Of a DNA stretch of 64,000 nt, positions 1-64,000 are shown one piece after another. This DNA comes from Amoebophrya sp. A120. Taxonomy: Eukaryota > Protista > Dinoflagellata. The translations under genes were made by a program, and so were the position numbers. Location: NCBI GenBank assembly GCA_905178155.1, contig CAJINV010000006.1, positions 1,613,876 to 1,677,875 of the forward strand, in the 5' to 3' direction. Below the pieces are notes generated by a model, which ran no database searches, had not been told where the DNA came from, and was given only the letters and a program-made list of their open reading frames with translations. The stretch's first letter is position 1. Each line of letters begins with the position of its first letter.

Positions 1-3000
1 GGTGGCCACCTGCTTTTCTATGGATTGCAAAAATGTCTGGGTCTGGAAGGGTGCCAGACTTGTCATGCAGATTTTCTATGGCCCATGAGGTCTGGTATGT
101 AGGACATAGCATGACAGATTCTGTGAGAGTTCTATCAGGCCTATCCTGCATGAGAAACTGCGTCTCGATTAGGTCAAAAGTGGACAGCTTTTGGTAATCA
201 TGCAACACAGATTTTTGCATGATTCAGCTTTAGCATGACATGTTGCTTTGTTCCAGACCCAGACATTTTTACATATTGAAACTTTCCGTCCCCTACCCGT
301 TGAGCATGGAAAAAGAAGCCACGAATCACGACTTCTGCCACAATATGCATTCGGAAATACGTCTGGGTCTGGAAGAGTCGGGGCTTGTCATGCACATTTT
401 GCATGGCTCGGGAAGTCTCTGATGCTGGTGCTAGCATCACAGATTTTTTGATGAGAGGTTCTTGATGCTAATTACGCATGACAAATGCCCTCTCCGCGTG
501 CCAAGAACTGGACTCCTTTTGCTGCAGCTCATGCAGCACAGATATTTTTAGGATCCGCAGACAGCATTACAAGTTCGACTCGTCCAGATCCAGACATATT
601 CGCAGTTGATACACAAATTTTTCAACAAACTTGTGGACGTGTGCGGCGGCCCGTGGACACTGAAAGACGGCTATGGAAGCGTCAGGATCGAAATCGACAA
701 AGTTGAAATAGTTTGTGATGCATAAAGTGCAACAAAGAAATTGCCTCTATTGCAGAGGACGCAAGGGATGCAGATTGTAAGCCTGTAAATGAGGGGTGCT
801 ACAGATTGAGCTGCCAAAGTAGCATGACAAAAGGCGTCCTCCTTACCCAAACAGCATTACAAACTGGATTTCAGTTCTACCCAAATTTGTCATTCGCCAC
901 TTGAAAACTAGGCGCCAACTGGTATCCGTTTCATGCATCACAAATTATTTCAACTTTCACGATTTCGGTCCTGACGCTTTCATAACGGCACGCACGAGTT
1001 CATGCGCGCTCGCCCGGGGTTTGCCGCGACGCCGGGAAAGAACATTTGTGCGGATCCTGACGCGCCGGTGCCGCCACCCACAACGAGCACGACAGCGGCG
1101 CCCCCGCCCCCTCTGTAGGGAATGCAAAAGCATCGTACAACTTCTAGTATAGATCGCATGACAAATTTTTTCCCCAGCTGCATGAGGGATCATGGAATTC
1201 GTCGTGCGCATTTGCAGCTTTGTGGAAGAGATTTGTATTGCATGACTGCAATTAGTACCAGTTGTGCGCTAGTGCTTTTGCATTGGATACCCTGCCTCCA
1301 CCGCCATCTTCGACGTCCTCAACCACCTGGCCGCCTGCACCGTACTATTCCACTATCAAATGTAAAAATGTCTGGGTCTGGAAGATTCTGAGACTTGTCA
1401 TGCATGTTTTGCATGACCCAGGATGTCTGTAATGCACGACCTAGCATCACAGATTTTTAGAGGGCTTCCTGATGGCTACTCCGCATGACAAACGCCCTTC
1501 CCGCGTAGCAAAAATTGCACTCCCTTTGCTGCTCATGCAATACAGATTTTTTTAGAGACCAAAGTTAGCATCACAAGTTCCAATCCTTCCAGACCCAGAC
1601 ATTTTTACATTTGATATCCACGATATCGCAACAAAAACGTGTTTTACTGTTATAGGATTTTGGAACTTCAAGTTTTGCATTTGCATCACAAAAGATAATT
1701 TGGTCTGCATAGACAACAAGGTGGAAAATTGAAATTTCCCATGCGAGTGTCGGTCTCTTACGGATGAAAAACTCGCCGAAGAAAAGTCCAATCTCTTGCT
1801 CTTGCATGTGTACTAGCAGCGCGACCGCTTGTTCTTTCCCTGTTGCGTCCTGCTCCTTTTTGGCATGATCACAAGTCATTTACAGTGAAGCAGTTCTTTC
1901 TTGTGATAAACGACCCGGCACATGCAGTATGCCGACCTATCAAATGTAAAAATGTCTGGGTCTGGAAGAATGCAACTTGTGACGCTGAATTTGGATTCCA
2001 AAAAAATCTGTATTGCATGAGCAGCAAAGGGAATGCAATTTTTGCTACGCGGAGAGGGAATTTGTCATGCGGAATAGGCATCGCGAAGCCCTGAAAAAAG
2101 CTGTGATGCTAGGGCATGCATCACAGACATCATGGCCAATGCAAAGCATGCATGACAAGTCTCAGAATCTTCCAGACCCAGACATTTTTACATTTGATAC
2201 GACCCTGATATCTACAACTTCATGACCCTGTCTATGGCGTTCTCAAACGTTCCATTTCGAACTGTTACATGGATGTGCAATGCAAGAACCACATACAAGA
2301 ATCAAAAGGTTGCTGCTTTCGCATCACAGATTTGCTGGTACAGATTTTCATGCTGTTTAGACCTTCGGAAATTTGTCATGCGCAGCCGCTTGGTCGTGTG
2401 GTTGCTTTTTATGGCGATTTTGCATGACAAATCATGTAACAGTTGAGAATGTAACATTTGAGAATGCCACACTGTCCCCAATCGGCCCGCCCCCGACCAC
2501 GACGCCGCCACCGGGTGAGCCGCCCGTCCCGCCGCCGCCGGCTTCCATATGAGAGTGCACAACCCCCGCTCCGTCTGCTCAGTTGAAAGGCGTGAGCAGC
2601 ATCACAGAGGACAGCAGAAATGTGGCACCTGCATGACAAATGCAAATCGAGGTCGGGGCTTTAGTACGGTTTGGAGTCGTCCTGGCGAAATTTGTGTTGC
2701 AAAGTAGTGCTCGAAGGCGGGATGTGGAGTTCTGTGGTTTTGCATGACAAATGAGGGAGGGGAGACGGATGATTGTGCACTTTCATATTCCACCTGCGAA
2801 TACTACATGTGGAACGACTGGTCTGACTGCACCCGGCACTGTCGGGATGCCTCTGGCGACACGGGCACGCGCACGCGGACGCTATCATATGTAAAAATGT
2901 CTGGGTCTGGAAACTTGTGATGCTGGGTGGCGTCTCATGATGAGGCCACAAATGCTGGCTCAGCATGACAAGTTTCTGAGCTTCTAGGTGTTGCCTATTC

Positions 3001-6000
3001 TGCATGTTGACAAACTGCGTTCCTGCATCACAGAAAAATGGAGCTCTTGGGTAACGCGCGTGACAGATTTAAGAGTCATGCCAGACAAGCATGACAAACA
3101 TGCATTCTTCCAGACCCAGAGGACATTTTTGCATTTGATAGACGCGAAGCATGGTCGAAAGCGCAGTATCAACCACCGCGTGCCACGGCAAGCCCAACCC
3201 CGACTCGCAACAAGCGGCCTGCTATCAAATGTAAAAATGTCTGGGTCTGGAAGATTCTGAGACTTGTCATGCATGTTTTGCCTGGGCCATGATGTCTGTG
3301 ATGCATGCCCTAGCATCACAGATGTTTTGAGGGCCTCGCGATGCCTATTCCGCATGACAAATGCCCTCTCCGCGTAGCAAAAATTGCACTCCCTTTGCTG
3401 CTCATGCAATACAGTTTTTTTTGGAATCCAAATCCAGCATCACAAGTTCCAACCCTTCCAGACCCAGACATTTTTACAATCCATACCTGCCCCCGCCGCG
3501 GCATGCCGAAGTGCTGCACGTGGGGGGATATCCTGTGCAAAAGTATCGTACTAACTCGTACTAATTGCGTTTATGCATTACAAACCTTTTTATCAAGGCA
3601 AGCCAAGTCTGCATGATATGCAAATTCAATTTGTAAAAATGCTTACGGAATTTGTAATGCAATTATTCATACTAGTTCTAGTACGATATTATAACTTTTG
3701 CAATGCATAGGGGAGTGGGAACCGTGGGGCGAGTGCAGCTGCGTGGGCACGACGGGACTGCACACAAGAGCCCGCCCGTTAACAAACGTCGCCCACCCCG
3801 TATCACAAGAAAAAAGTGTTACAGTTACACATTTGTTGGAGTTTCTGCATCACAAAGTTGCTCGACATGGCAAAGAAAACCTGTGATGCGCAGACTACAA
3901 GGGAAAACAGTAATGAAATGAGGCTGGTAAGCATTTCCTGCATGACATAGGTTGTCTGTCTTGCTTGTCGTCCATGAGAGTGTGTAACTGTAACACTTTT
4001 TTCTCAGGATGCCCCGCCGTTTGCGAGTTTTTCGTACAAGAGGAGGCATGTGAAGACGAGGATCAGGAGAGATTAAAATAGGAAATGCAAAAAATATTTA
4101 TCTGGGACACCTCCGTCGACTGGGACCAATATTAAACTGACATTTTGTTTCACGCACTGTGTGCATGTGCAAGATGAACAGAAAGTATGACAAAAAATTA
4201 TGCGGATGCCACTCCCGCTTCTCCACCATCGATTCTGTCTGCATGAGAACTACATCAAATGGCCTCGTCTTCTCGTGCTGGAGACGAGAATGATCGCGCG
4301 CCTACTTCTGCTGATTTTTATCCAGCACTGATTTTTTTTTTGTCATCCTACTTTCGAAAGATGACCCGAGGTGGACCCCGATAAATATCTTTCTATTTGC
4401 AATGCATAAGAAATGCGGAACGAGTACGACAACAAGCCCTCCCGCACCCCCGCCTCCCTCGCCAACAACGAGTCCGCCGGCAACCTCCTCAAGCTCAACA
4501 ACAAGTCCTTCCGCACCTCCCGCAAGCTCAACGGCAGCTCCGCCCGAACCCCCGCCACCCTCAACAGCAAGTACGCCGGCAACCTCCTCAAGCTCAACAA
4601 CAAGTCCTTCCGCACCTCCCGCAAGCTCAACGGCGCCTCCGCCCGAACCCCCGCCACCCTCAACAACAAGCCCCTCGTCCAGCAGTAGTACGACTACATC
4701 TTCAGCTTCACCCCCGACTATGCAAAGAGAATAAAAGTGTTACACTTACACATCGTGTTCGCAAAACATGCGAGACAGACGACCTCTGTCATGCTCAAAA
4801 TGCTTGCGAGTCTCGTTTTGTGTGTGTTTTGCCTTACGATCTCTGCATTACATACAAGTTTTTTCCGTCATGCGAGGCAAATTTGTGATGCTGAATTCAC
4901 TACAAATGTGTGACTGTATCAATCCACTTTTTTCCTTGGATACCGACGACCCCGCAGCCGCAACCTTCTACGCGGCCCCCACCACCGCCGCCAGAAGACT
5001 GCCAGCTTTCCGACTGGAGTGACTGGTATGAACTGCAAAAGTATCGTACTAGTATGAATCGCATGACAAATTAGCTTAGCACGACAAATGGAATTTGTCA
5101 TGCTGTTTTGCCTTGGGATGAAAATTTGTAATGCATGACTGCGATTACTACGAGTACGATACTTTTGCACAGGATAACTGGGGCTCGTGCTCCACGACGT
5201 GCAACCCGTATCAGATGCAAAAATGCGTGGGTCTGGAAGATTCTGAGACTTGTCATGCATGTTTTGCATGACCCAGGATGTCTGTAATGCGCGACCTAGC
5301 ATCACTGATTTTTACAGGGCTTCCTGATGCCTACTCTGCATGAGTAACGCCCTCCCCGCGTAGCACAAACTAGACTCCTCTTGCTGGTCATGCAATACAG
5401 ATTTTTTTGAAAACCAAAGTTAGCATCACAAGTTCCAACTCTTCCAGACCCAGACATTTTTGCATTTGATAACCCGAGAAGGGCATCAACATCTTCAAGC
5501 GAAGATAGCGGCAAGGGCGTGTGGTATCGGACCAGAACCATTTCAGAACCGGCCAAACACGGCGGGACGTGTATCCTGTGTAAAAACGTCCCCAGCACCT
5601 CAGAGTCAAGATGGGGAATCGGCTAGACAAATCCACAAGCTTTGGCTGTTTTGCATGACAAATTTGGACTCGTAGCGTAGTGCTGTTTGAGCTAGCTCAG
5701 CAGCATCACAGATCCAGTACATCATGCAGATTGGAGCATGACAAATGGCAAAACACGACTATAAAATGCTTCTCATGGGGCTCCGCATGAGAAACATTCT
5801 GAGCATGCAGCTTCGCATTACAACTCTGGGGTGGGGACGTTTTTAATTACGATAACGTGCAGAGAGCCGCTGCGGGAGAGCGAAGAGTGTACGGGTATTG
5901 CCCCATGCCGCCCAGGGAGTCCGCCCGGGGGGAAAAAAGACTGCATGTACGACTCGTGGAATGCGTGGTCGCCCTGTTCCCGCTCGTGCATGGACACAGA

Positions 6001-9000
6001 CGGCGACAAGGGCACGCAGACGCGGACACGGGTGGTGAAACAAGAAGCCGCGAACGGCGGGGAACTGTGCGCCGGCGAAGGGGAGAAGGAGACTCGGGAT
6101 TGTATCAGGTGTAAAAACGTCCCTGCCCCAGAGTTGTCACGCAAGTCTGCATGGTGAAAATAAATGTTTCATGTGGCGCTGGGTGCGGGTGTCCACTACA
6201 TGATGATGATGATGATGCGAAACCCCAACATGAGAAGCATTCTCTAGTAGTGTTTTGGGATTTGTGATGCTCGAAGCAGCATGATGCGCCAGATCTGTGC
6301 TGCTGCTGAAGATCTAGCTAAACAGGATCACACTGCGAGGCCAAACTTGTCTTGCGCAGCAACGAAAGCTGACTGATTTGTCTAGGAGCAGATTCCCCAT
6401 CTTGGCTTTGGGGTGGAGACGTTTATTTTGCACAGGATAAATTGTGCGGAAAACCTGCCGGACTGCGACGCGGACTGCGTGATGAGTCAGTGGCAGGCGT
6501 ACGTATCAAATGCAAAAATCCCTGGACGTCTGGGAGGATGGAACTTGTGATGCGTCCTGTGGGTCACACAAAAATCTGTGTTGCGTGATCACCCAAAGTT
6601 GTTCTTGCTTGTTTGACCAACCTGAGCGGGAGTTTCTCATGCAAAATAGGCATGATGGAGACTTCCACTTCGACTTCGCAGGATCTGTGATGCTAGGTCC
6701 TGCATTCCAGACCTCGCGAGGCATGGAAAATATGCATGACAAAAAATCTGCATTCTTCCAGACCCAAACATTTTTGCATTTGATAGTACGGCGACTGCAG
6801 CCAAACCTGCCGGCGAGTGGGGGCGCCGGCGGGAAGGCAGCAGTTTCGGCGGTCTGTGCTCACGCAGGCAAAGGGGCCAGGCGGGCAGTGTCCAGACGAA
6901 GACGACACGAGGAAAACCGAGGACTGCGCGAACGAACAAACCTGCCCGCCCATGCCGGATTGCGTCTGGACCGAGTGGCAAGCCGACTCGCGGGGGTGCA
7001 GTAAAAGCTGCGGCACCGGTATCGTGAGAAAAATGGTTACAGTGACAAACTCTCATGCAAGACAAGCAAGACAGGCAACCACTGTCATGCAGGAAGCGCG
7101 TCGTGCGAGCCTCATTCCATTCGTGTTTTATTCCCTTATAGTCTACTGCGCATTACAAGTTTTCTTCGCCATTACAAGAGCAGATTTGTGATGCTGAAAT
7201 TCCAACAAATGTGTAACTGTAACACTTTTTTCCACTTGGATAACCGGGGAACAGCGGTACAACCGGCGCATCATCATGGGGGATTGCGAGGGCGGATATC
7301 CTGAGTAAAAACGTCCCCACCTCCCCGGAGTTGTCATGCAAATGTGCAATGACAGGAACTTTTGTAATGCGCAGCTCCATGAATCCAATGGTGTTTTGGA
7401 AAAATTTGTGATGCTGTATTAACAAGATGTGAAAATGGCTTCGTCATGTAACCACTCCCTTGCCAACCAGCACTACACTGCAATGGGAAAGAACTTGTCA
7501 TGCACAGCTCCCAAAAGTTGGAGATTTGTGCTGCTAGATTCCCAAGAACTTGACTCTGGCGTCGTGGGGACGTTTTTGCTTGGGGTAGCGGACAAGAGCT
7601 TGCCAGCACCAAGGTGGAGAACTGCAAGGAGGATCCCTGCCCCTTGAGCTGCGAGGTGGAGCGGGATTGGCAGCCGATCGGAAATTGTTGGACTGGTAGC
7701 TCTTCCATTTGGGGCAACGAGGGCCCTTCGAATTACAATGCTGTTGACAAGTGTGAGGGCTGGGTTATGAACTATCGAAAGGTGATAGGAAGGTGCACAA
7801 CTCCCCCTCCACCACCTCATTTGTCACGCAAAATACCTAATGCTAATCCACCCTTATTTGCCTGTTGGCACTGTTTGATTGCATGACAAGTTCTGGTAGC
7901 CCAAATAGCACTACACTCCAGTGCAACTTTGTCACGCAAAGCCGGCACTCTTGCTGGTGCTTGTATTACCGTTCACGCTATACAACTGAGGGGGAGGGGG
8001 AGTTGTGCACTGTCATAGGTCACGCAAGCGGACCAGCACGCCAATTTGTACAGCGATGACGTGGTGCGGACCTGCGAAGAACTCGCGGAATCGGAACACG
8101 CCCGACTCTATGCAGTGCAAAAGTATCGTACTCGTCGTACTAATTGCGAACATGCATGACAAGTCTTCTCCTAAGGTAAAGCAGCATTATATATAAGGCC
8201 GAGGGAATTTGTATTTGTGATGCTATTTATACTAGGACGCTACTTTTGCAGGTCATAGACTCAAGCAGCCGCAGCAGCAGCGAGATGACCCGTGCCCCTA
8301 CGACGAGACAGAAAGGTGCATCCACTACATGCAGCTGCCCCTTCGGATTCAAAAAGTCGTAAAGTGCCGGGACCCGGCGTTGTGTCCGAAAAAAGACTGC
8401 GTGATGAACGCCTGGGGCCCCTGGGGCGATTGCTCCCACACTTGCGGGGAAGGGGAGAAGAAACGGACCAGGACGGTTAAATCGGAAGCAAAAAACGGAG
8501 GAACCCCCTGCGACGAAATGTCTTATCAAATGCAAAAATGTCTGGGTCTGGGAGAATGGATGTTTGGCATGCTTGTCTGGCATGACTCTTAAATCTGTCA
8601 TGCACGTTACCCAAGAGCCCCATTTTTCTGTGATGCAGAAACGCAGTTTGTCATGCAGAATAGGCAACACCTAGAAGCTGAGAAACTTGTCATGCTGAGC
8701 CAGCACTTGCGGCCTCATCATGAGACGCCACCCAGCATCACAAGTTTCCAGACCCAGACATTTTTACATTTGACAGGTCTAAAGAGCAAACCACGTCGTG
8801 CGAAAACGAACACCACTGTCCAGTTCACTGTGAATGTATGAACTGCAAAAGTATCGTACTCGTAGTATTGCATGCAATACAAATTAGCTCAGCATGACAA
8901 ATGGAATTTCTCATGCTGATTTAGCTTGACAAAGAAATTTGTTTTGCATGACTGCAATTACTACGAGTATGATGCTTTTGCACAGGATAGAATGGAACGA

Positions 9001-57000: not shown

Positions 57001-60000
57001 CGCGTTTATGGCGTGGGGGAGCGATAATCTGTGTTACAACATGACCAATGACAAGGTATCCACTGCAAACATTGATCTGGGTCTGAAAGGTAGTTGCAAC
57101 TTGTTGTATATGCTGTCTACTTCGGATTATTTTTCTAAAAAAAGTGTGCTGTTTTTGCACGATCAGCAAGAGCAGGAGTCCAGTTTGTGCTACGCGGAGA
57201 GGAAATTCAAATTTACTCATGCGGAATAAGCATCAAGAAGATCTCTAAATTTATGCCATTTTTGTTCATTACAGGCAAAGGCATCATGGTCCATGCAAAA
57301 TATGCATGACAAACCTGGCAATCATCTTCCAGACCCTGACATATCGGCAATGCATACAAGGTGGTGAATTGTAAAACAGACACCGAATACGGCTGTTGGG
57401 ACAAAGCTCACCCCAACAGGTATCGCAAGAAAAAAACTGTGTAAGTGTAAATCTGCAATGCAGAAGAACATGCAACAGATTTACGCCCGTGGTCATGCCG
57501 GACAGCCATGAAGTGCTCTTTTTATCTGTGTTTTCCATTGCAAGAGCAAGACACGCATTTTTTTTGTCATGTAGAGCAAAGTTGTGATGCTATTGCTATC
57601 AGCCAAAGATTGTTACACTATTAACACAGGAGTTTTTCTCTCGGATAACACGGGCGCGCAGTGCAAAGACGAGCAAGGGCAGCCGGTGCCCCCGGCGCAG
57701 TATTATCGCATATACACGCGGTCGGTCACGGAACAGACGAATGACGGCAAGCCCTGCCCGGCCGAAGATTCCCTGTGCACCGAGCACCATGAACACGACT
57801 GTACGAATATCAAAAGGAAAAATCCCCCCTCCCCATATCGAAACGAAATTTCTGATGCTGGATTTGCGTACACAAATCAGGTCTGTCTTGCTGGAGAGGA
57901 CTGCAGGCATATACCAAGCCTGGGTCGAGAGGTTTTGACGTAGGGGACTAGCATGACAGACGTCGGCCCTGTAAGCCCAACAGCATCACAAACCGCCGGC
58001 ATAATGCGGCGGACTCTCTGGCTTTGCCTTCTTGCAAGACAGACAGGATTTGTGACCTCAAATCTGCAGCACAAATTTTCAGACGAATGCGTTCTCAATA
58101 TTATGGGGAGGACGGATTTTTCCTCTCAATAACGAAGCAAAACGTTCGCGTGTACCACAACCATGACCAGTGCACCTCCACCGAACCCGGTGTCCCTTCG
58201 CTCGGCTGGTGCGCGATTGACTGCCAGGTTAGTGAGTGGAACCAGACCGACCTGGAAAAGGTGTCCCGGTGCCTGCGCGACGTGACGCAGCCACCCGCCC
58301 CTTATCAAATGCAAATATGTGGTCTGGGTCTGGAAGATTCTGAGACTTGTGCTGCACGTTTTGCATGAGCCATGACGTCGATGATGCATATGTCCTAGCA
58401 TCACAGAGGACTTTTTGAGGGCTTGTTGATGCCGATTCCACACGACAAATACCCCTACTACCGCGTAGCAAAAATTCCTTTCCCTTTGCTGCTCATGCAA
58501 TACAACTTTTTGTAGAATTTGAATGCAGCACCACAAGATGCATTTCTCCAGACCCAGATGACACATTTGCAATGTATACCCCCCCAAAAGTTGTCGGCCC
58601 CCACCGGTTTCCGAAGAACTTTTTCAGCCAACCGAAGGGTGAAAATGAAACATTTTGCATGAAACCCTTTGCGAACCCAGCGGAGGAAGGAACGTACTAC
58701 CAGAAACTTGTTCGCACGGTGCTGCTATCCCAGAAAAAAAGGCCAGACGGTGTAACTTTGACTTTCTTGGCGGAATAGCATTTTTACAAACATGTGGTCT
58801 TCTGGAATGATAGGAAAATCCCGCCATAATCATGCGCAGATTGTGCATTGAAGCGCACTTCTTGAATGGACCCTACAAATACAATGAATTTCCAGCATGT
58901 CTACAGGTGCAATCATCTAGCATGTTCTTGCGCATCACAAAGTTCTTACACTAACAATGCTTTTTTCTGGCATGATAGCTGCGGCCCGCGAACCACACTG
59001 GCGCCGTTGCGGGTAGGAGTGTGAATCACCTCCCCACCCCTTTGAATCACCTCCCCACGCATCACCCCGCCACCCGGATCACCTACCCACCTCCCCCGCA
59101 TCACCTCGTGATGCGGCCGCATCACCACCGCAACGGCCGGAGGTGATGCAGAAGCAGAGCCGGCTGCGGCCTTGGTTGTTTAGGGTCTAGGGTTTAGGGC
59201 TCGGGGTTTAGGGTCGTCGAGGCCAGCCGGCGCGACGGTGCGCGCCGTCGCGCCGGCTGGCCTCGGCGATTCTCTTCTCCTCGTGTTGTTCCCCCCTTCT
59301 CCGCCCTTGGGCGCCACCCTTTTGGTTTCCGCTTCTCCTAGGTCCTTATATATGTTGTTCCATTTTCGTCACCTTAGGGCCGCCGGCCGCCATCTGGCGG
59401 CCGCGTACATAGGCGGATCTGTCACGCAGCATGAGGGCTCATGTGCGTTGTGGCAGATACCTGGCTTCATGGCCGCGAGGTAGATCGATGGCACAGAAGC
59501 CAAGCAGCAAGCATCCAGACGCAGTCACGTTCTGGTCGACCATCACGGGGAAGTGCAACGCAGTGGGGAAGTGCTGGACGACTGGGAGGTGGGGAGGTGG
59601 GGAAGTACCTCCCCACCTTCCCACTACTGGGGAGGTACCTCCCCACACGTGGGGAGGCACCTCCCCAGGGTGGGGAGGTAGGGAGGTGGGGAGGTGATGC
59701 GTGGGGAGGTGATTCACACCATAACCTTAGCCGTTGCGTGTCCGACGGGAGAAACGGACAGTCATAACCCTTCGTACCCGTCAGTCGATGCCATCCCCAA
59801 GGACGACATGACTTTCAATGTCTACAAGGATTTCAACGCTTGTACTGAGGACCACTTACACTACTGTCCTTTCGATTGCCAGATGAGCGACGACTGGGCG
59901 GCGCAGGTGCCCCCTGGAACTCCGGAACCCGTGTGCTACAACAGTGAGACACACCAGCCGGACCACAGCCATAACAAGGCGGACGGAAAGCCATGCGGCA

Positions 60001-63000
60001 TAGAAGGGAAGCGCTACTACAGGAATTACACGCGCAACATCGCCATGTTGCCCGACGGCGTGACGCCGGCCGAGGCCAAGTACGGGGGCAAGGGGTGCCC
60101 GACGGGGTTGTGCCCGACCGAATTATTCGACAAGGACGGCCCACCAACCGAGAGGCCGCCCACCGCTTGGGCGAAGTGCAATAAGCAGGATGGGGCGCAT
60201 ATGGAAGTAGCGTCAGGTTTGAAACCGACAAAGTTGAAATAGTTTGTGACGCATGAATGGCAAGGCATGAAGTGCCTCTCTTCTTGCAGGGATTTTTGCA
60301 AGTAAGGCCGACTGTCAGCCTGTTCGGGGTCTGCGATAGAGCTGCTAAAGTAGCATGACAAAAGACGCCTTCTATCCCTAAACAGCATGACAAACTGGAT
60401 TTAGCCGGTTCCGAAATTTGTCATGCGCCGCTTCGAAATTGCGCTTCCAACTGGTATCCATTTTATGCATGGCAAATCATTTCAACTTTGACGATTTCAG
60501 TCCTGACGCTTCCATAGCGCAGTCGGATTACGCAGAATACCACGACTTTTTCGAGCCCGCTTGCCAAACGGCGCCGCCAGGTTCGTTGATGCTGTGTCCG
60601 GTAGACTGCGTGATGAAGCCGTGGAACGAAACCAAGGCAGCAGATCTTTCCCTCTGCGCCCTCGACGAGAGTCCGGTCCGGCCGAAATTACCGATTTACG
60701 GTCCGGACGAAATTAAAACGGAGCGCGTGGTTATAGAGGAACTACCATCTCCAGGGGGGAAGGAGAAGGGCAAGAAGTACTGCAAAAAGGGCCCTTCCGA
60801 GCGCTGGTACCAGATTTTGTTCCGGGGAGTAAAGACTGAGGCGAACAAAAGTCCCGAGAGCAAGCAATGCCCAACCGGCGAGGAGACAAGCAATAATGCT
60901 GCCTACAACACGGCAGCAAGCTATCGAATGCAAAAGCACCGTAAAAATAGTATAAATTGCATTACAAATTAGCTCAGCATTACAAATAAAATTTGTAATG
61001 CTGAATTACCTTGATAAAAAGATTTGTCATGCATAAATGCAATTACTACGAGTACCTACGATACTTTTGCATTGCATAAAAGCTTCAAAGCAAGCAATCC
61101 CGACGAGTATCCGGATCCGGAAACAAATCCTGACGCTACCCTGGGTATGAAATGCAAAAATGTCCGGGTCTGGAAGAATGCAACTTGTGATGCTGTATTT
61201 GGATTCCAAAAAAACCTGTATTGCATGAGTAGCAAACAGAATGCAATTTTTTCTACGCTGAGAAGATATTTGTCATGCGGAATAGGCATCAAGAAGCCCT
61301 CAGAAAATCTGTATTGCTAGGGTATGCATCACAGACATCATGGCTCATGCAAAACGTGCGTGACAACGACAAGTGTCAGAACCTTCCAGACCCAGACACT
61401 TTTACAATTGATACTGGGACCGCTGCGCCGCTTCAAAAACTACACAGCCTGTGACCCCCTTCCGATGTGTCCCGTGGACTGTGAGACCACTGCGTGGGAG
61501 AACGAAGATCCATCGCAGCCGAACTGTTTCAACGCCAAGACAGACGCCGTGGACACGCGCAGAGACACGGGGGCCCCGTGTCTGCGAGGACAGGTATGAA
61601 ATGTAAAAATGTCTGGGTCTGGAAGATTCTGAGACTTGTCATGCATGTTTTGCATTGGCCATGATGTCTGTGATGCATGCCCTAGCATCACAGATTTTTT
61701 GAGGGCTTCGCGATGCCTATTCCGCATGACAAACACCACTCCGCGTAGCAAAAATTGCATTCCCTTTGCTGCTCATGCAATAAAATAGATTTTTTTGGAA
61801 TCCAAATTCAGCATCACAAGTTGCATTCTTCCAGACCCAGACACTTTTACATTTGATAACAGGGCGCCCGGTACTACCGCAAGAAGACCAGGAGTGTGAA
61901 GACAGAATCTTATCCTGTGCAAAAGTATCGTACTCGTAGTATTTGCAATCATGCATCACAAATTTTTTTCTCAAGGTAAATCCGCATCACAGATTTTATA
62001 ATTTCTCATGCTGAGAAAATTTGTAATCGTAATGCATTTTTACGAGTACGATACTTTTGCAATTCATAAATCTGCCCACGGCGGCAAGGAGTGCCCGGCA
62101 CCGGACGGAGTGGAGTGTCAGGCGGGTACCCTGGAGGATGTGTACGAATTGATTAAGGGCAAGCTGGAGAAGTGCACGCCGCCCGAGGGCCCCAACAAAA
62201 AAGAACGCTGTACGCCTGTGACGACCGGCATCGCTGCCGACGGCAAAATCACTTTCCAGGACCTGGACTCGGCGAAGGACGACAATCTCGTGGACCCGGA
62301 AGTGATGGCGTTCGCGGACCAGAATACAACACTTGGTGGCAGGTTCCGGTCATGGTTTGACACAGAAGACCAGAACTCACAGATAACCCTCGCCGAATGG
62401 CGCAGGACGCTTTATCTCCTGTTCCAGAAAGAGTGGATCGAGCTATCAAAAGGAAAAATCCTCCCTCCCCATATCGAAAACGAAATTTGTGGTGCTGTAT
62501 TTGAGTACACAAATCGACTTGTCATGCTAGAATGCCAAGAGACGCAGCTGTGGCCTCGTTTGCAGGCAATTTGTCATGCTGTATCCCACTTCCAGCTGCC
62601 CCCTGTCATGCTGAAGATGCAAGGCTTTCCCACGCCAACCAGCACTACAGTCCGCATATCTACCCTTCTAGCATGACAAAGCTGATTTGTGGTCGCAAAT
62701 CTGCATCACAAATTTCTAGTTTGAGTATGGGGTGGGAAGATTTTTCACTTTGATACGAGCGCAAGGACCTCCCGCGGCTGAAAGAGATCCTCGCGGGGGG
62801 CCGAGAGGTGGCCAGCGAGGCAACGTGCAATGATGTACGCAGATACAGGGACTACAAGGATCCACAGTGTAGTATTGTACCACCTGGCGCTTTACCGCAG
62901 GGGCAGGCTGCGGCGGAAAATGAACTGCCCAGGTGCGAGATTGACTGCTCGCTGGGAGTATCAAATGTAAAAATGTCTGGGTCTGGAAGAATTGGAACTT

Positions 63001-63799
63001 GTGCTGCTAACTCTGGTCTGTAAAAAAATCTGTATTGCATGACCAGCAAAAGGAGTCTAGTTTGTGCTACGCGGCGGGGAGGGCGTTTGTCATGCGGAGC
63101 AGCCATCAGGAAGCCCTCTAAAAATCTGTGATGCTACGTCGTGCATTACAGACATCCTGGGTCATGCAAAACATGCATGACAAGTCTCAGAATCTTCCAG
63201 ACCCAGACACTTTTACATTTGATAGGGAGAGTGGCAAGACGACGAATCCGCTTTCGGAGACATATGGCATTCTCAAGCGTTACGCTCTCAACTGTTACAT
63301 GAATTTGTCACGCAAGAACAGCAACAGTGAAATCGTCACAACGTGCAAGAACTCTCGCATCACAAATTATTCCGAGCAGATTTTAATGCTGTTTAGCCCT
63401 TCCAGAATTTGTCATGCGAAGTAACCGTGGTCGTCTGGCGGCTTATGGTAATTTTGCATGACAAATGATGTAACGCTTGCCAATGTAACATTTGAGAATG
63501 CTATAAGACAGAGTGTTCACGTTTGACGAGCTGAAGGACGAGGTCGTAGCCTACATTGTATCCTGTGCAAAACAAGTATCTGATACTCGTATTGCAGTCA
63601 TGCATTACAAATGTTCTCCTTAAGGTAACTCCGCATCACAAATTTCATTTCACATGCTGGGGAAATTTGTAATGCATTTATACGAGTCTACGACACTTTT
63701 GCAATGCATATATTGACCTAAACACCAATAAACCGCAACAGTTTATCACCCGTGCCAACTGGTTCGCGAAGTACGAAATATTAGCGGCCGCTGAGCAGG
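1..63799 (+). CDS. Giant multi-exon gene (about 150 exons, partial at both ends) encoding a thrombospondin type-1 repeat, Cys-rich adhesin-like protein
   Basis: GC-rich spacers between TAT..ATA elements join in frame once the element plus one 5-bp repeat is removed. Examples: DCQLSDWSDW|GSCSTTCNP (across 5027-5176), PVHCEW|NEWQNYGQC (across 8837-8989), TRTRT|RS (across 2883-3140). Recurrent WxxWxxCSxTCGxG, RxRxR, GGxxC and CPVDC motifs are typical of spondin-type TSP1 repeats. Many but not all junctions were translated by hand, and no stop was found in the joined frame. Confidence 0.85.
1354..1616. mobile_element. Introner family A (44 copies, about 250-300 bp); representative copy
   Basis: TIR TATCAAATGTAAAAATGTCTGGGTCTGGAA; TSD TCCAC here. 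Copies: 19-281, 344-611, 1354-1616, 1938-2199, 2883-3140, 3223-3485, 5209-5471, 6504-6785, 8524-8775, 11133-11397, 11484-11756, 13018-13269, 13934-14184, 14425-14686, 15882-16151, 19123-19384, 20739-21003, 21539-21806, 24758-25008, 26096-26359, 27258-27515, 27574-27838, 28227-28501, 31212-31477, 32748-32999, 33877-34133, 36051-36661, 37133-37384, 38083-38352, 44759-45016, 46401-46662, 46847-47109, 50230-50531, 50583-50835, 52179-52442, 52529-52780, 52833-53100, 53803-54056, 54106-56377, 57057-57356, 58303-58578, 61146-61413, 61595-61858, 62959-63224. Confidence 0.92.
2548..2787. mobile_element. Introner family F (6 copies, about 215-250 bp); representative copy
   Basis: TIR consensus TATGA(G/A/C)AGTGCACAACTCCCCCTCCCCCTCATTTG; TSD TTCCA here. 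Copies: 2548-2787, 7786-8017, 10242-10491, 16961-17190, 47158-47373, 53280-53508. Confidence 0.88.
4079..4408. mobile_element. Degenerate singleton introner
   Basis: TAGGAAATGCAAAAAATATTTATCTGGG ... CCCCGATAAATATC..TTTGCAATGCATA. Its removal bypasses the in-frame TAG at 4079 and joins ERLK to CGTSTT. Confidence 0.7.
4409..4718 (+). CDS. Exon: Pro/Ser/Thr-rich mucin-like linker
   Basis: Frame of ORF 4402..4734 (KKCGTSTTTSPPAPPPPSPTTSPPATSSSS...), bounded by elements 4079-4408 and 4719-4942. Confidence 0.8.
4477..4670 (+). repeat. Coding tandem duplication, 99-bp (33-aa) unit, 2 copies
   Basis: CAACCTCCTCAAGCTCAACAACAAGTCCTTCCGCACC... begins at 4481 and again at 4580. Confidence 0.85.
5027..5176. 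mobile_element. Introner family C (23 copies, about 142-180 bp); representative copy
   Basis: TIR TAT(CCTG/GAAC/GCAT)TGCAAAAGTATCGTACT; TSD ACTGG here. Copies: 1116-1289, 3529-3709, 5027-5176, 8109-8257, 8837-8989, 12238-12387, 13303-13468, 19692-19834, 28544-28717, 30197-30340, 33070-33212, 38523-38673, 38995-39139, 41565-41715, 42250-42399, 43202-43343, 44482-44630, 49796-49953, 50035-50194, 53616-53765, 60922-61078, 61911-62068, 63559-63710. Confidence 0.9.
5855..6102 (+). CDS. Exon: TSP1 repeat
   Basis: DCMYDSWNAWSPCSRSC...TQTRTRVVKQEAANGGELC (ORF 5831 frame). Confidence 0.85.
6172..6217 (+). mobile_element. Short 5'-truncated copy of the same (TGA)n-tailed insert
   Basis: TGTGGCGCTGGGTGCGGGTGTCCACTACA(TGA)5TG, one mismatch to the 3' end of 31707-31997 apart from tail length, at the same position in family D. 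Confidence 0.65.
8258..8523 (+). CDS. Exon: TSP1 repeat
   Basis: DCVMNAWGPWGDCSHTCGEGEKKRTRTVKSEAKNGGTPC (ORF 8329 frame). Confidence 0.85.
8990..9980 (+). CDS. Longest exon: several tandem TSP1 repeats
   Basis: ORF 8939..10003 frame: WHEWGEWGDC, WQWTDCSATCGTTGVRKR, CSKTCGGGVQKKTR, CSGSCGGG...QTR, CPVDC. Confidence 0.9.
10772..11079. mobile_element. Introner family B (13 copies, about 310 bp); representative copy
   Basis: TIR TATGGAAGCGTCAGG(A/T)TTGAAATCG(A/T)CAAAGTTGAAAT; TSD GATGA here. Copies: 672-984, 10772-11079, 13547-13854, 16213-16529, 17946-18251, 23861-24204, 29161-29477, 30850-31159, 40452-40758, 42446-42764, 47903-48675, 48827-49134, 60200-60516. Confidence 0.9.
11757..12237 (+). 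CDS. Exon: TSP1 repeats
   Basis: ETRPCNDHACPVDCVLSSW...CSKTCGMGSQKYKR (ORF 11625 frame). Confidence 0.85.
17191..17549 (+). CDS. Exon: TSP1-like repeat
   Basis: GGKEC...CPKQDCEVSEW...FERTILKQPRNNGTECPELEKWEEC (ORF 17178 frame). Confidence 0.8.
18252..18728 (+). CDS. Exon: TSP1-like repeats
   Basis: Open frame KYKKILQQPRHDGAKNC...DCKVEEGEWKQTPCSKSCDTGRFRKYKR...CNERVCAVDC. Confidence 0.8.
19385..19691 (+). CDS. Exon with EF-hand-like loop inserted in a TSP1-like repeat
   Basis: VFGKL-DFDKNEKLSEEE-YQRFL, a 12-residue loop with D1, D3, N5 and E12 at 19436-19471. Confidence 0.75.
20145..20738 (+). CDS. Exon: TSP1 repeats plus S/T/P linker
   Basis: DCVLHQWEDWGDCSQSC...TQTRSRKV...CNQVECP (ORF 20191 frame). 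Confidence 0.85.
21004..21538 (+). CDS. Exon: Cys-rich non-TSP module
   Basis: ORF 20884 frame: VECWNAC...GFCSKC...GACCRY...DPRECR. Confidence 0.75.
21807..22255 (+). CDS. Exon: Cys-rich module
   Basis: ORF 21865 frame: GLCDKC...KGACCKKG...HAC. Confidence 0.7.
22432..22576. mobile_element. Foldback (palindromic) MITE nested in introner 22256-22694
   Basis: Perfect inverted arms of about 57 bp (TGCTAGCCGGATGAATGCCCAGCAAATGGG...ACATCAAG) around an inner hairpin CTCCTGCTGCA-T-TGCAGCAGGAG. Inserted at a GCTAGC site, so the TSD is TA or CTAG (ambiguous). Confidence 0.8.
23581..23800. mobile_element. Introner family G group (16 copies, about 200-285 bp, several subfamilies); representative copy
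   Basis: TIR TATC(A/G)CAAGAAAAAA(G/C)TG...; TSD AAGTG here. Copies: 1624-1908, 3801-4011, 4719-4942, 7020-7242, 9981-10207, 12426-12642, 15534-15750, 22778-23001, 23581-23800, 35184-35414, 39693-39895, 49181-49399, 50913-51121 (nested), 57421-57647, 58726-58977, 63800 to window end. Confidence 0.85.
24432..24711. mobile_element. Introner family D (21 copies, about 280 bp); representative copy
   Basis: TIR TATCCTGAGTAAAAACGT(A/C)CCCACACCAGAGT; TSD CATCC here. Copies: 5572-5854, 6103-6439, 7297-7587, 16606-16912, 24432-24711, 26408-26686, 26851-27129, 29870-30152, 31645-32207, 35489-35767, 37456-37664, 39365-39650, 40095-40376, 41201-41479, 42876-43154, 43390-43668, 45181-45465, 49446-49736, 50886-51405, 51464-51742, 51857-52135. 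Confidence 0.9.
25441..26095 (+). CDS. Exon
   Basis: ORF 25393 frame between elements 25206-25440 and 26096-26359, ending in RYFKKKILKI...GKACP, the repeat motif of this protein. Confidence 0.75.
31707..31997 (+). mobile_element. (TGA)n-tailed retroposon-like insert in family D introner
   Basis: About 290 bp absent from sister copies (e.g. 41201-41479), ending TGTGGCGCTGGGAGCGGGTGTCCACTACA(TGA)n. Confidence 0.65.
33213..33876 (+). CDS. Exon
   Basis: ORF 33156 frame: YYRERVREIKVQPGFGGDACP...LPPCPVDC. Confidence 0.8.
34411..35183 (+). CDS. Exon: Cys/Asp/Trp-rich segment
   Basis: ORF 34423 frame (CDDDTCYDRENCDEDCYAWCWHHC...). Confidence 0.75.
36296..36639. other. Unclassified insertion of about 345 bp in the right TIR of introner 36051-36661
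   Basis: Flanked by a duplicated CCAGAC from the TIR; lacks introner motifs. Confidence 0.6.
37701..38023. mobile_element. Introner family H (12 copies, about 305-340 bp); representative copy
   Basis: TIR TATCAAAAGGAAAAATCCCCCCTCCCCATAT; TSD GAACC here. Copies: 14767-15103, 17550-17870, 18729-19057, 22256-22694, 23211-23540, 30492-30796, 36759-37083, 37701-38023, 41784-42118, 45945-46272, 57808-58131, 62444-62755. Confidence 0.88.
38784..38940. mobile_element. Introner family I (2 copies in opposite orientations)
   Basis: TATGCAATGTAAATTTCC...GGAAATTTACTGTGGATA with TSD AGAAG. Its near reverse complement lies at 45544-45697 (TSD AGGTG). Confidence 0.88.
40799..41033. mobile_element. Introner family E (10 copies, about 235-270 bp); representative copy
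   Basis: TIR TATGGCGTTCTCAACTGTTACATTCTCAACTGTTACATG; TSD ACCCA here. Copies: 2233-2471, 12731-12973, 15187-15457, 19876-20144, 25206-25440, 32246-32492, 34167-34410, 40799-41033, 44203-44437, 63263-63505. Confidence 0.9.
42119..42820 (+). other. PAN/apple-like domain split across three exons
   Basis: Joined translation LALCQQWCQQDGNCACWSFC...NCCWLKP...PGYTSG fits the C-x3-C-x5-C-x2-W-x-F...C-W-L-K...SG pattern of PAN/apple modules. Confidence 0.6.
43669..44202 (+). CDS. Exon: TSP1 repeat
   Basis: WSACSVTCGTGGKQYRTQRI, containing the CSVTCG motif (ORF 43746 frame). Confidence 0.85.
47470..47724. mobile_element. Introner, singleton family K
   Basis: TATGACTTGCTCAAGCGTTACAATCTCAAACGTTACAATAGAATCTG ... 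CAGATTCTATTGCAACGTTTGAGATTGTAACACCTGAGCGGGTTATA; flanks TGCGA/TCCGA. Confidence 0.8.
48155..48625. other. Unclassified insertion of about 470 bp in introner 47903-48675
   Basis: This family B copy is 773 bp versus about 310 bp for its sisters. The insert is AT-rich with approximate boundaries. Confidence 0.6.
54550..55460. repeat. GC-rich minisatellite, about 60-70 bp unit with internal inverted repeat
   Basis: Unit GCTGCCTATTGGCCACGCCTACCGACCTACCCACCCAC-n-GTGGG(T/C)GGGTGGGGCGAGCGTGC repeated more than ten times. Confidence 0.9.
55725..56005. repeat. Degenerate tandem repeat (GCGCGCA(G/A)CACAGATTTGTG units)
   Basis: Repeated CACAGATTTGTG and TGCGCGCA segments inside the Mutator-like element. 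Confidence 0.8.
56378..57056 (+). CDS. Exon with three SFLQ motifs and an EF-hand-like loop
   Basis: ORF 56372 frame; IFRKL-DFDKDEKLSEKE-YSRFL with the loop at 56759-56794, paralogous to exon 19385-19691. Confidence 0.8.
59012..59729. mobile_element. TIR element with 9-bp duplication forming a probable GT-AG intron (59013-59730)
   Basis: GCCGTTGCG at 59003-59011 and 59730-59738. Subterminal inverted repeat GTGTGAATCACCTCCCCAC / GTGGGGAGGTGATTCACAC. Donor G|GTAGGA and acceptor CCTTAG| are both phase 1. Confidence 0.75.
59179..59213 (+). repeat. Degenerate TTTAGGG telomere-type repeats (5 units)
   Basis: TTTAGGG TCTAGGG TTTAGGG CTCGGGG TTTAGGG. Confidence 0.6.
59731..60199 (+). CDS. Exon
   Basis: ORF 59694 frame: VACPTG...YCPFDCQMSDDW...RYYRNYTRNI...YGGKGCP. 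Confidence 0.8.
60517..60921 (+). CDS. Exon
   Basis: ORF 60418 frame: YHDFFEPAC...LCPVDCVMKPW...WYQILFRGV...KQCP. Confidence 0.8.
62069..62443 (+). CDS. Exon
   Basis: ORF 62008 frame: HGGKECP...RFRSWFD...EWRRTLYLLFQKEWIE, paralogous to exons at 51743-53279. Confidence 0.75.
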
Positions 63800-64000
63800 T
63801 ATGCAAGAAAAAACTGTGTAAGTGTAAGTGTAACTCTGTAATGCAAAAAATGAAAAACGATTATTTTTTAACGCTTGTCATGCTCCACATGCATGATGCG
63901 CTCGCTTCCTACGTGTTTTCATTTCCCGTCCTATCTGCGCATGACAAGTTCTTCCTGTCATGGCAGACAAAGTTGTGTGTGATGCTGTTTTCCCAAAAAA

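Follow-up and report, generated by a model that had tools for sequence, protein, structure and literature searches.

The window analyzed here, a 64,000-nt stretch of Amoebophrya sp. A120 (contig CAJINV010000006.1, positions 1,613,876 to 1,677,875), contains one giant gene interrupted by TIR-bounded elements. Judged at the protein level, removal of each element together with 5 nt, and no other net cut, restores its reading frame and that of an interrupted RPB1 gene in another assembly. The elements are very likely the introner elements of A120 (PMC7789003; Gozashti et al. 2025, PMC12130899); the element system itself is already known and the elements are not new. We favor, with moderate confidence, the explanation that they are MITEs with 5-bp duplications (TSDs), excised together with one copy of the duplication by a relaxed spliceosome that would cut one base before and four bases after the element.

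Inventory and ends of the elements

We found 147 complete outer TAT...ATA elements, one nested copy (50913-51121) and one copy cut by the window end (63800..64000, forward strand), which gives the 149 elements in one gene that the initial annotation had estimated. They cover 40,474 of the 64,000 bp (63%, where about two thirds had been claimed), and 141 of the 147 are 140-345 bp long (claimed range 140-340 bp), with a median of 263 bp. The TAT and ATA ends reported for nearly all of them are found at 139/147 starts and 133/147 ends, and both in 127/147; the first three positions are T in 147, A in 147 and T in 139 elements, and TIR positions 11-14 are A in 110-135 of the 147. A perfect 5-bp direct repeat flanks 104/147 elements, or 105/148 with the nested copy counted, which reproduces the earlier hand count, and a 5-bp repeat with one mismatch flanks 36/147. 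Perfect repeats of 4 bp occur in one of the 147 and of 6-10 bp in none, and permutation of the right flanks gave a mean of 0.9 perfect pairs, with a maximum of 5 in 10,000 shuffles. In 7/147 the TSD has decayed to 1-3 of 5 matches, and those copies still lie within open frame. G is present on both sides of 14/147 elements, in agreement with the dozen or so said to have G before TAT and AG at the end, and base preference at the target site was absent from both the window elements and those of another assembly.

Elements were called automatically in 103 cases and by homology votes or by eye in 44, and seven boundaries and the nested case were shifted by 1-6 nt after the frames had been seen. In the other assembly, 407 paired elements called without a TSD criterion show a perfect 5-bp repeat in 309, a 4-bp repeat in seven and a 6-bp repeat in none; since these TSD-blind calls agree with the window, its TSD count is no artefact of boundary correction. 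The families recur across the genome, as contigs from other loci join or leave the window exactly at element ends (21 of 21 ends checked).

All families have the common ends TAT-N5-(G)-Y-AAAA and the subterminal repeat GCAT(G/C/T)AC(A/G), from which we infer that a single integrase-type transposase moved all of them. The elements are short, TIR-bounded, TSD-flanked, multi-copy and non-coding, as MITEs are, and have the TAT-started end repeats with an A-run, 5-bp direct repeat, family-wise repetition and non-canonical dinucleotides of A120-type introners. The MITE nature and precise removal with one TSD copy that had been proposed are supported, with the Amoebophrya introner as the closest system.

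The interrupted gene and the net cut

Once every element has been cut out with 5 nt, and a single GT-AG intron that the initial annotation did not mention (59013..59730, forward strand) has been removed as well, what is left is a single 21,872-nt frame without stops (2..63799, forward strand; 7,290 codons, 149 exons), partial and open at both window ends, while the alternative frames after the same removal contain 239 and 185 stops. The earlier statement that removing the element plus one repeat restores a TSP1 frame is borne out, with the GT-AG intron also removed. The product contains about 30 TSP1/spondin-like repeats (31 TSP1 domains with a profile made from the homologues retrieved), Pro/Ser/Thr tracts and two EF-hand-like motifs recognized by pattern match only. 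Pfam matches on exon 8990-9979 are TSP1_spondin and TSP_1, and proteins of A120 and A25 are among its many TSP1 relatives, which match at 30-36%; a weak protein search, with queries limited to 2,000 residues, found no annotated copy of the gene. The gene has 6.8 introns per kb, whereas the genome-wide figure is 1.42, and 2/147 internal exons are shorter than 25 nt against about 23 expected.

The stop test was run per junction at 145 of the 147, as the 7-bp spacer 1617..1623 (forward strand), which lies between two elements with overlapping TSDs and leaves a 2-nt exon, bars a uniform +8 or +11. Only element+5 cuts taking 0 or 1 left-copy base are free of stops, and in every register element+2 gives 3-5 and element+8 gives 2-6. 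The TSP1 profile scores 516-524 bits for element+5 within the TSD against 402-425 for element+2, with no separation among the in-TSD registers. RPB1 (RNA polymerase II; locus L025 of the other assembly) is interrupted by the same families, and element+5 is best-scoring and gap-free at 5/5 junctions in conserved, alignable stretches, including that of a 972-bp copy. These are the five usable calls of ten at this locus; of the calls set aside, one falls within a canonical intron, another lies where conservation is poor (element+5 again scores best there), and three belong to a 3' part that could not be aligned. Over 248 junctions of the other assembly the stop test separates weakly (one stop for element+5, 2-12 for the other models). 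Taken at the protein level, we regard the evidence for this net removal as strong.

Contigs were compared with window positions 34106-54105. Four pieces from runs that we guess to be RNA stop exactly at the points predicted by element+5, and element+2 (N-TAT...ATA-N) fits one of the four; these ends come from one sample, represent one side of a junction each and carry no information on register. Raw RNA run X7 gave 22 aligned reads over the same region, 21 of them partial, and no spliced joint is present among the joints listed for these contigs.

Position of the cut within the duplication

Mismatched TSDs favor an intron of the form N-TAT...ATA-NNNN. Stop avoidance requires that at least one, two and four left-copy bases be kept at 4079, 34167 and 53280, respectively; in the last case (53280..53508, forward strand) the mismatched TSD creates a TGA stop unless at least four are kept in the exon. 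A conserved Trp and Cys demand at most four: in element 22778..23001 (forward strand) the second Trp of the TSP1 WxxW, and in element 47903..48675 (forward strand), which carries a 470-bp internal insertion, the repeated GACC motif survive their mismatched TSDs only within this limit. The register is read from five informative TSDs, two of them via motif conservation.

Read in transcript sense, the window elements have no change at TIR positions 1-2 of the 5' end and 12 changes at those of the 3' end (p=0.0005), with the 5' starts 4079 and 33877 placed by eye at a TA. The 248 copies of the other assembly show 2 and 7 (p=0.18 alone), and the combined value is p=0.0002; the invariant TA is limited to the transcript 5' end. 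Under the inferred register T is at +2 and A at +3 in 147/147, while G at +1 (49/147) is not enriched over a background of 30%, nor is AG at the 3' end (8/147). Ordinary RPB1 introns have the donor GTA in 8/8, as does the intron at 59013, and because the invariant 5' T-A corresponds to +2/+3 of this host donor, half of the canonical donor seems to be read. Under this register the elements as a group have neither the GT or GC of a U2-type donor nor the AG and upstream branch signal of a U2-type acceptor, and when all six registers are considered, no more than 7/147 offer a GT-AG pair. Excision independent of GT-AG, as originally proposed, holds in that GT-AG is not needed, but it was probably overstated, given the donor-like 5' T-A. 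In Table S4 of PMC7789003, 9/9 predominant non-canonical splice pairs of A120 begin N-T and vary at the end, which may reflect the choice of the aligner among equivalent registers.

Route of removal

A relaxed spliceosome would act on non-autonomous TIR transposons inserted in either orientation within coding sequence, whatever the bases at the target. The TAT of the TIR would provide +2 to +4 of the GTA(T) donor used by the host, +1 being unconstrained, the TIR hairpin would bring the ends together, and the acceptor would be placed by its distance from the stem, AG not being used. Both ends read TAT inward, therefore either orientation yields a valid intron, and as 1+4 equals the 5-bp TSD, nearly every insertion would be scar-free. 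We tentatively propose, as a possibility somewhat short of even, a minimal splicing code consisting of an N|U-A donor and an AG-less acceptor 4 nt past the terminal hairpin, which exactly offsets the 5-bp duplication. If true, insertion at any sequence or orientation would produce a scar-free intron, one rule would cover tens of thousands of "signature-less" introns, and the second step of the spliceosome would have no need for an acceptor dinucleotide. More than 60% of Amoebophrya introns are removed without GT-AG, and no clear splice signature emerged in the original study (PMC7789003). If the 1+4 register holds, there would be a simple signature, masked because a perfect duplication is ambiguous to aligners. 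It would also set a relaxed spliceosome apart from a route like that of Euglena, make splicing testable, account for the ability of these transposons to saturate even RPB1, and correct gene annotation in the lineage.

Structure-guided removal is plausible, and the TIR stem is present in the predicted MFE fold of 131/140 elements. Strand-specific selection on RNA pairing was looked for and not seen (G-U 300, A-C 275), and sense and antisense duplex energies do not differ. No sense-strand branch or acceptor signal was found, and no strand-biased 4-6-mer exceeded multiple-testing noise. The subterminal motif was rejected as a branch point, its sense bias being absent (30:32 in the window, 32:63 in the other assembly). 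The negative results on pairing and on sense-strand signals weigh against the favored reading.

The same elements and net cut could instead be handled by a non-spliceosomal, hairpin-measuring nuclease and a ligase, as suspected for euglenids, a route that we hold to be rather unlikely. It accords with the absence of AG, pyrimidine tract and strand-specific branch signal, with the irrelevance of orientation, and with tolerance of a 2-nt exon and of introns as long as 2.3 kb. According to section 10 of PMC7789003, neither A25 nor A120 yielded a detectable U1 snRNA, which also counts against a relaxed spliceosome; Euglena uses a stem with fixed spacers, N3CDG...CH'GN5-6 (PMC12501133), and releases its introns as circles (review PMC11282704, section 6). 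However, the invariant 5' T-A matches the host donor, U2, U4, U5, U6 and 83/89 spliceosomal proteins are reported in A120 (PMC7789003, section 10), and the tunicate Fritillaria processes similar introns by a modified spliceosome (PMC13326754).

Less probable still is that the cut is positioned by alignment of the two repeat copies, with the junction wobbling within the TSD and either copy able to enter the mRNA. Farhat et al. describe splice sites as variable relative to the hairpin (PMC7789003, Fig. 3 legend and legend S23). In the other assembly, 27/41 TSD mismatches are synonymous, against 31-44% expected if one copy were free intron (p≤0.005), and 28/41 are at third codon positions; both TSD copies look protein-constrained there, which counts against the 1+4 reading, although these frames were called by a codon model rather than from transcripts. 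In the window, however, 20/53 mismatches are synonymous, which is consistent with a fixed register, three mismatches make stops in low registers, one of them in every register below 4, and the seven copies with decayed TSDs remain in open frame.

Somatic DNA excision resembling that of ciliate IESs, or a dead gene whose junctions are reverse-transcription artefacts, is very improbable. IESs have TA-bounded ends, and template switching is favored by short direct repeats beside hairpins; however, the long open frame and the interrupted RPB1 demand real removal, contigs of run X5 (probably DNA, and possibly the source of the window) read from element to exon to next element, with no exon-exon joint among 15 listed of 2,081, and the 5'/3' asymmetry tracks transcription. 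Least likely of all is the use of ordinary splice sites, GT-AG or GC-AG, close to where the elements end, with a few codons gained or lost, which is similar to an outcome that the initial annotation had named against itself: a frame-keeping GT...AG pair lies within 10 nt of the TSDs in 67/147 and within 25 nt in 128/147, and G flanks 14 elements on both sides, but this is largely refuted by the scarcity of GT-AG within the TSD registers, the stops and lower profile scores of other net cuts, invariant RPB1 motifs that allow no codon gain or loss, and the contig ends.

Comparison with known introns

The system proved nearer to print than the initial annotation implied, as TAT starts, A-runs and 5-bp direct repeats are already described for A120 introners (Farhat et al. 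2021, PMC7789003, section 11, legend S19). As described there, both share inverted repeats in which TAT is followed by seven looser bases and an A-run, 3-5 nt direct repeats (one example has 5 bp), a length of about 240 nt, many families, tens of copies per gene, no internal transposase and non-GT-AG ends; we found no structural difference. Relative to the introner descriptions of PMC7789003 and PMC12130899, the additions are the exact 5-bp TSD in all families, orientation independence, a target without base preference, the predicted N-TAT...ATA-NNNN register, the subterminal motif common to the families and the scarcity of exons below 25 nt.

Euglenid nonconventional introns (Nomura et al. 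2025, PMC12501133) share paired ends, fixed stem-to-cut spacers, free terminal dinucleotides and TSD-like repeats; however, their signature N3CDG...CH'GN5-6|R is a different motif, with spacers of 3 and 5-6 against a predicted 1 and 4 here, they need an exon-start purine where the window elements have no exon-start base bias, and the lineages are unrelated. MITE-derived introns of Fritillaria borealis (PMC11282704; PMC13326754) share TIR and TSD, non-GT-AG splicing and retained canonical introns, but prefer AG-AC/AG-AT ends and an exonic TAC target, whereas the window elements show no target or end preference other than N-T-A. Micromonas and Aureococcus introners share MITE origin, TSD and scar-free splicing (PMC11282704, PMC9860276), but carry or co-opt canonical GY/AG from element plus TSD, and the window TSDs have no AG/GT bias. 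As described in PMC10045372, IS3EU/GingerRoot share TA...TA termini and Ginger2 a 4-5 bp TSD; IS3EU/GingerRoot membership was rejected on its 6-bp TSD, found in 0/147 and 0/407 elements.

Families and individual copies

Clustering gave 10 multi-copy clusters (44, 30, 23, 13, 10, 7, 6, 3, 3 and 2 copies) and seven singletons, compatible with the 11 or so families first proposed. Family 0 (19..63224) contains 44 copies of about 263 bp (e.g., 1354-1616 and 46401-46662; orientations 22:22). Cluster 1 (3801..52135) contains 30 copies (12:18) in two related groups, of about 279 bp (e.g., 24432-24711) and 220 bp (e.g., 22778-23001). Family 2 (1116..63710) contains 23 copies of about 151 bp (e.g., 5027-5176; 13:10), Family 3 (672..60516) 13 copies of about 313 bp (e.g., 10772-11079; 6:7) and Family 4 (2233..63505) 10 copies of about 243 bp (e.g., 40799-41033; 4:6). 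Families 5-9 and the singletons (1624..62755) show the same end grammar as the larger families. Overall, orientations are 67:74 among the window families; in the other assembly, the 243 copies with a called strand divide 114:129.

A transposase gene, which the initial annotation had suggested looking for in long copies, was absent from seven long or candidate copies, and Pfam detected no transposase or integrase in 78 unspliced ORFs of at least 350 codons (774 kb of loci); Rfam gave no matches. The nested copy, which has its own perfect 5-bp TSD, is enclosed by element 50886..51405 (forward strand). One Family 0 copy (54106..56377, forward strand) measures 2,272 bp because it carries an insert (54321-56317), which has a perfect TIR of 80 bp and a flanking repeat of roughly 10 bp; element+5 removal still restores the frame. 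The only GT-AG intron, at 59013..59730, is a TIR element unrelated to the others and flanked by a direct repeat of 9 bp; it is probably spliced in frame, adding two codons, and a relative of it is present in locus L016.

Elements, families and insertion sites

Elements were called first by an inverted-repeat scan blind to flanking repeats, then from self-BLAST votes and by examining the leftover gaps. This gave 147 complete elements, one nested and one truncated at the window end; elements make up 63% of the window, in agreement with the initial annotation, which described about 149 introners in one gene covering about two thirds of the sequence. The TAT...ATA ends and 5-bp flanking repeat that it proposed were also recovered: 139 of the complete elements start with TAT, 133 end with ATA, and the flanking repeat is perfect in 104/147 and has a single mismatch in 36/147, with one repeat of 4 bp and none of 6 bp. 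Shuffled flanks yielded at most five perfect 5-bp pairs by chance. For 44 elements the placement rests on homology votes or visual inspection, and eight boundary decisions postdate sight of the frames; the element set from JACKZZ01 contigs of another assembly is independent and unaffected by these choices. It comprises 128 loci (L001-L128, 774 kb, six overlapping ones excluded) from a scan with the TIR of family 0, the largest family, which found 130 stretches, all on JACKZZ01 contigs among those listed. A perfect 5-bp repeat flanks 309 of the 407 paired elements in these loci.

The window elements form 10 multi-copy clusters and seven singletons, family 0 copies being up to 97% alike across their entire length. 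The families have in common the end form TAT-N5-(G)-Y-AAAA and a subterminal repeat, GCATGACAA, GCAT(G/C/T)AC(A/G), which is nearly missing from exons (2 hits in 21.9 kb). It occurs about three times per element and in 139/141 short copies, across families otherwise unrelated in sequence, frequently lies 30-50 nt inside each TIR and has no sense bias; from its distribution it is a candidate transposase binding site. Contigs of other genomic copies depart from or join the window exactly at element ends at 21/21 positions checked. From -14 to +9, no position of the target departs from the base composition of exons, all three codon phases are hit (57, 50 and 40), and the two orientations are about equally frequent (window 67:74, loci 114:129).

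The suggested TIR search and transposase check bore out multi-copy families in the loci, but no transposase was found in the long copies or loci ORFs. The TA...TA termini resemble those of IS3EU/GingerRoot, whose TSD is however 6 bp, and the 5-bp TSD recalls Ginger2, with 4-5 bp (PMC10045372); one A120 family combines TIRs with Copia/Gypsy-like ORFs (Gozashti et al. 2025, PMC12130899). On these likenesses, the mobiliser is likely integrase-type. The elements are very probably MITEs, as first annotated, precisely removed with one TSD copy.

The system itself has been described before, and the window is a genuine, very dense case of it. Farhat et al. 2021 (PMC7789003) count 29,850 introner copies in A120, starting with TAT + 7 nt + AAA and flanked by 3-5 nt direct repeats, one example being 5 bp; the parts of that article consulted report no transposase, no U1 and the absence of a clear splice signature. 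In the supplement of Gozashti et al. 2025 (PMC12130899), most of the 19 of 58 A120 rows consulted are classed as TIR DNA without a known superfamily, their automated TSD calls being 2-5 bp long. Related work, in the parts consulted, includes a review (PMC11282704) and PMC9860276, PMC12005148, PMC12621601, PMC13326754 and PMC12501133.

Further insertions lie in or beside the elements. A second kind of transposon-derived intron, at 59013-59730, shows an unrelated TIR, GT-AG ends, telomere-like TTTAGGG units and a 9-bp direct repeat, which we take to be of Mutator-like length; a relative lies at L016:2280-2756. A 2-kb element at 54321-56317, inside a family 0 copy, has an 80-bp perfect TIR, a flanking repeat of about 10 bp and internal 68-bp tandem repeats; nothing in the 774 kb of loci matches it. 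Elements also harbour insertions at 22352-22591 (which contains a long perfect hairpin and has a match in L063), 31707-31972, 36296-36624 and 48154-48622.

Net length removed

Removal of each element plus 5 nt, together with the GT-AG intron at 59013-59730, leaves 7,290 codons with no stops and TSP1/spondin repeats in frame, so the annotated restoration by element plus one repeat holds. Per junction (145/147), this length gave no stops with 0 or 1 base taken from the left copy, while in every register element+2 gave 3-5 stops and element+8 gave 2-6. The TSP1 profile favours element+5 by about 100 bits. RPB1 (L025) is interrupted by the same families, and element+5 is top-scoring and gap-free at 5/5 junctions in conserved stretches. 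Four contig pieces from X1/X2, runs presumed to be RNA, end exactly at element+5 predictions (one sample, ends only), and the rival cut N-TAT...ATA-N matches one of the four; with no joint listed and coverage limited to 34106-54105, direct RNA proof is thin.

In RPB1 (L025:3602-14139) the introners sit in invariant motifs. The gene also has eight ordinary introns, all starting with GTA, and one introner (11516-11756) is nested in an ordinary intron.

Position of the cut within the TSD

A perfect TSD allows six equivalent cuts, which the 43 TSDs with mismatches can in principle tell apart. Stop avoidance demands at least one (element 4079), two (34167) and four (53280) left-copy bases in the exon; the second Trp of a WxxW motif at 22778 and a GACC motif at 47903, with two further occurrences elsewhere, are kept only with at most four. 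The single fixed register compatible with all five is N-TAT...ATA-NNNN, 1 nt before the element and 4 after. Profile scores spread by just 7 bits among in-TSD registers, and the top-scoring one (4 left, 1 right removed) holds two stops. In transcript sense, TIR positions 1-2 of the window elements are unchanged at the 5' end and changed 12 times at the 3' end, against 2 and 7 changes in 248 strand-called loci copies; since orientation is even, transposition alone would predict symmetry. The 8/8 ordinary RPB1 donors and the GT-AG intron of the window all start with GTA, so the TIR would supply donor positions +2 to +4. All nine predominant A120 non-canonical pairs in Table S4 of Farhat et al. 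(PMC7789003) start N-T, although the aligner may have picked among equivalent cuts.

The most likely mechanism, at about even odds, is a relaxed spliceosome that would take N-U-A as donor, with the acceptor placed 4 nt past the TIR stem; that this basis and the 1+4 register are both right is somewhat less probable than the reverse. Against this reading, neither G at +1 (49/147) nor AG at the 3' end (8/147) is enriched, and the subterminal repeat lacks a sense bias. Predicted in 131/140, the TIR hairpin of the structure-guided excision first proposed is available, but the tests for its selection as RNA were negative: sense G-U is not preferred to A-C (300 vs 275) and sense duplexes are not more stable than antisense ones. 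Removal by a non-spliceosomal system measuring the hairpin, as suspected in Euglena, is a weaker but serious candidate. Less probable again is a cut wobbling within the direct repeat. Synonymous TSD mismatches in coding copies of L001-L128 (27/41) exceed the expectation with one copy free (p<=0.005); this excess is unexplained under a fixed register and points to both copies being able to enter mRNA; the window shows no such excess (20/53). Excision from DNA, or an artefact, is very improbable, and canonical splice sites at a shifted position slightly more so.

The value of this case lies in its 147 junctions within one frame, which reveal a candidate rule, and a simple one, for how such introns are spliced. 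We found no publication of the 1+4 register or of orientation independence, though Figs 3 and S19-S23 of Farhat et al. may show part.

The interrupted gene

The gene at 2-63799 encodes over 7,290 residues with TSP1 repeats, EF-hand-like motifs, mucin-like tracts and, recognised by eye, PAN/Apple-like Cys motifs. From these motifs its product looks like a giant secreted adhesin; searches limited to 2,000 residues turned up no annotated copy. Internal exons below 25 nt number 2/147 against about 23 expected, and neighbour gaps below 24 nt number 4/300 in the loci, which could be a footprint of splicing or of transposase or chromatin. The single clear exception is at 1617-1623, where 7 bp separates two elements with overlapping TSDs, leaving a 2-nt exon; their sequential removal is feasible whichever goes first.
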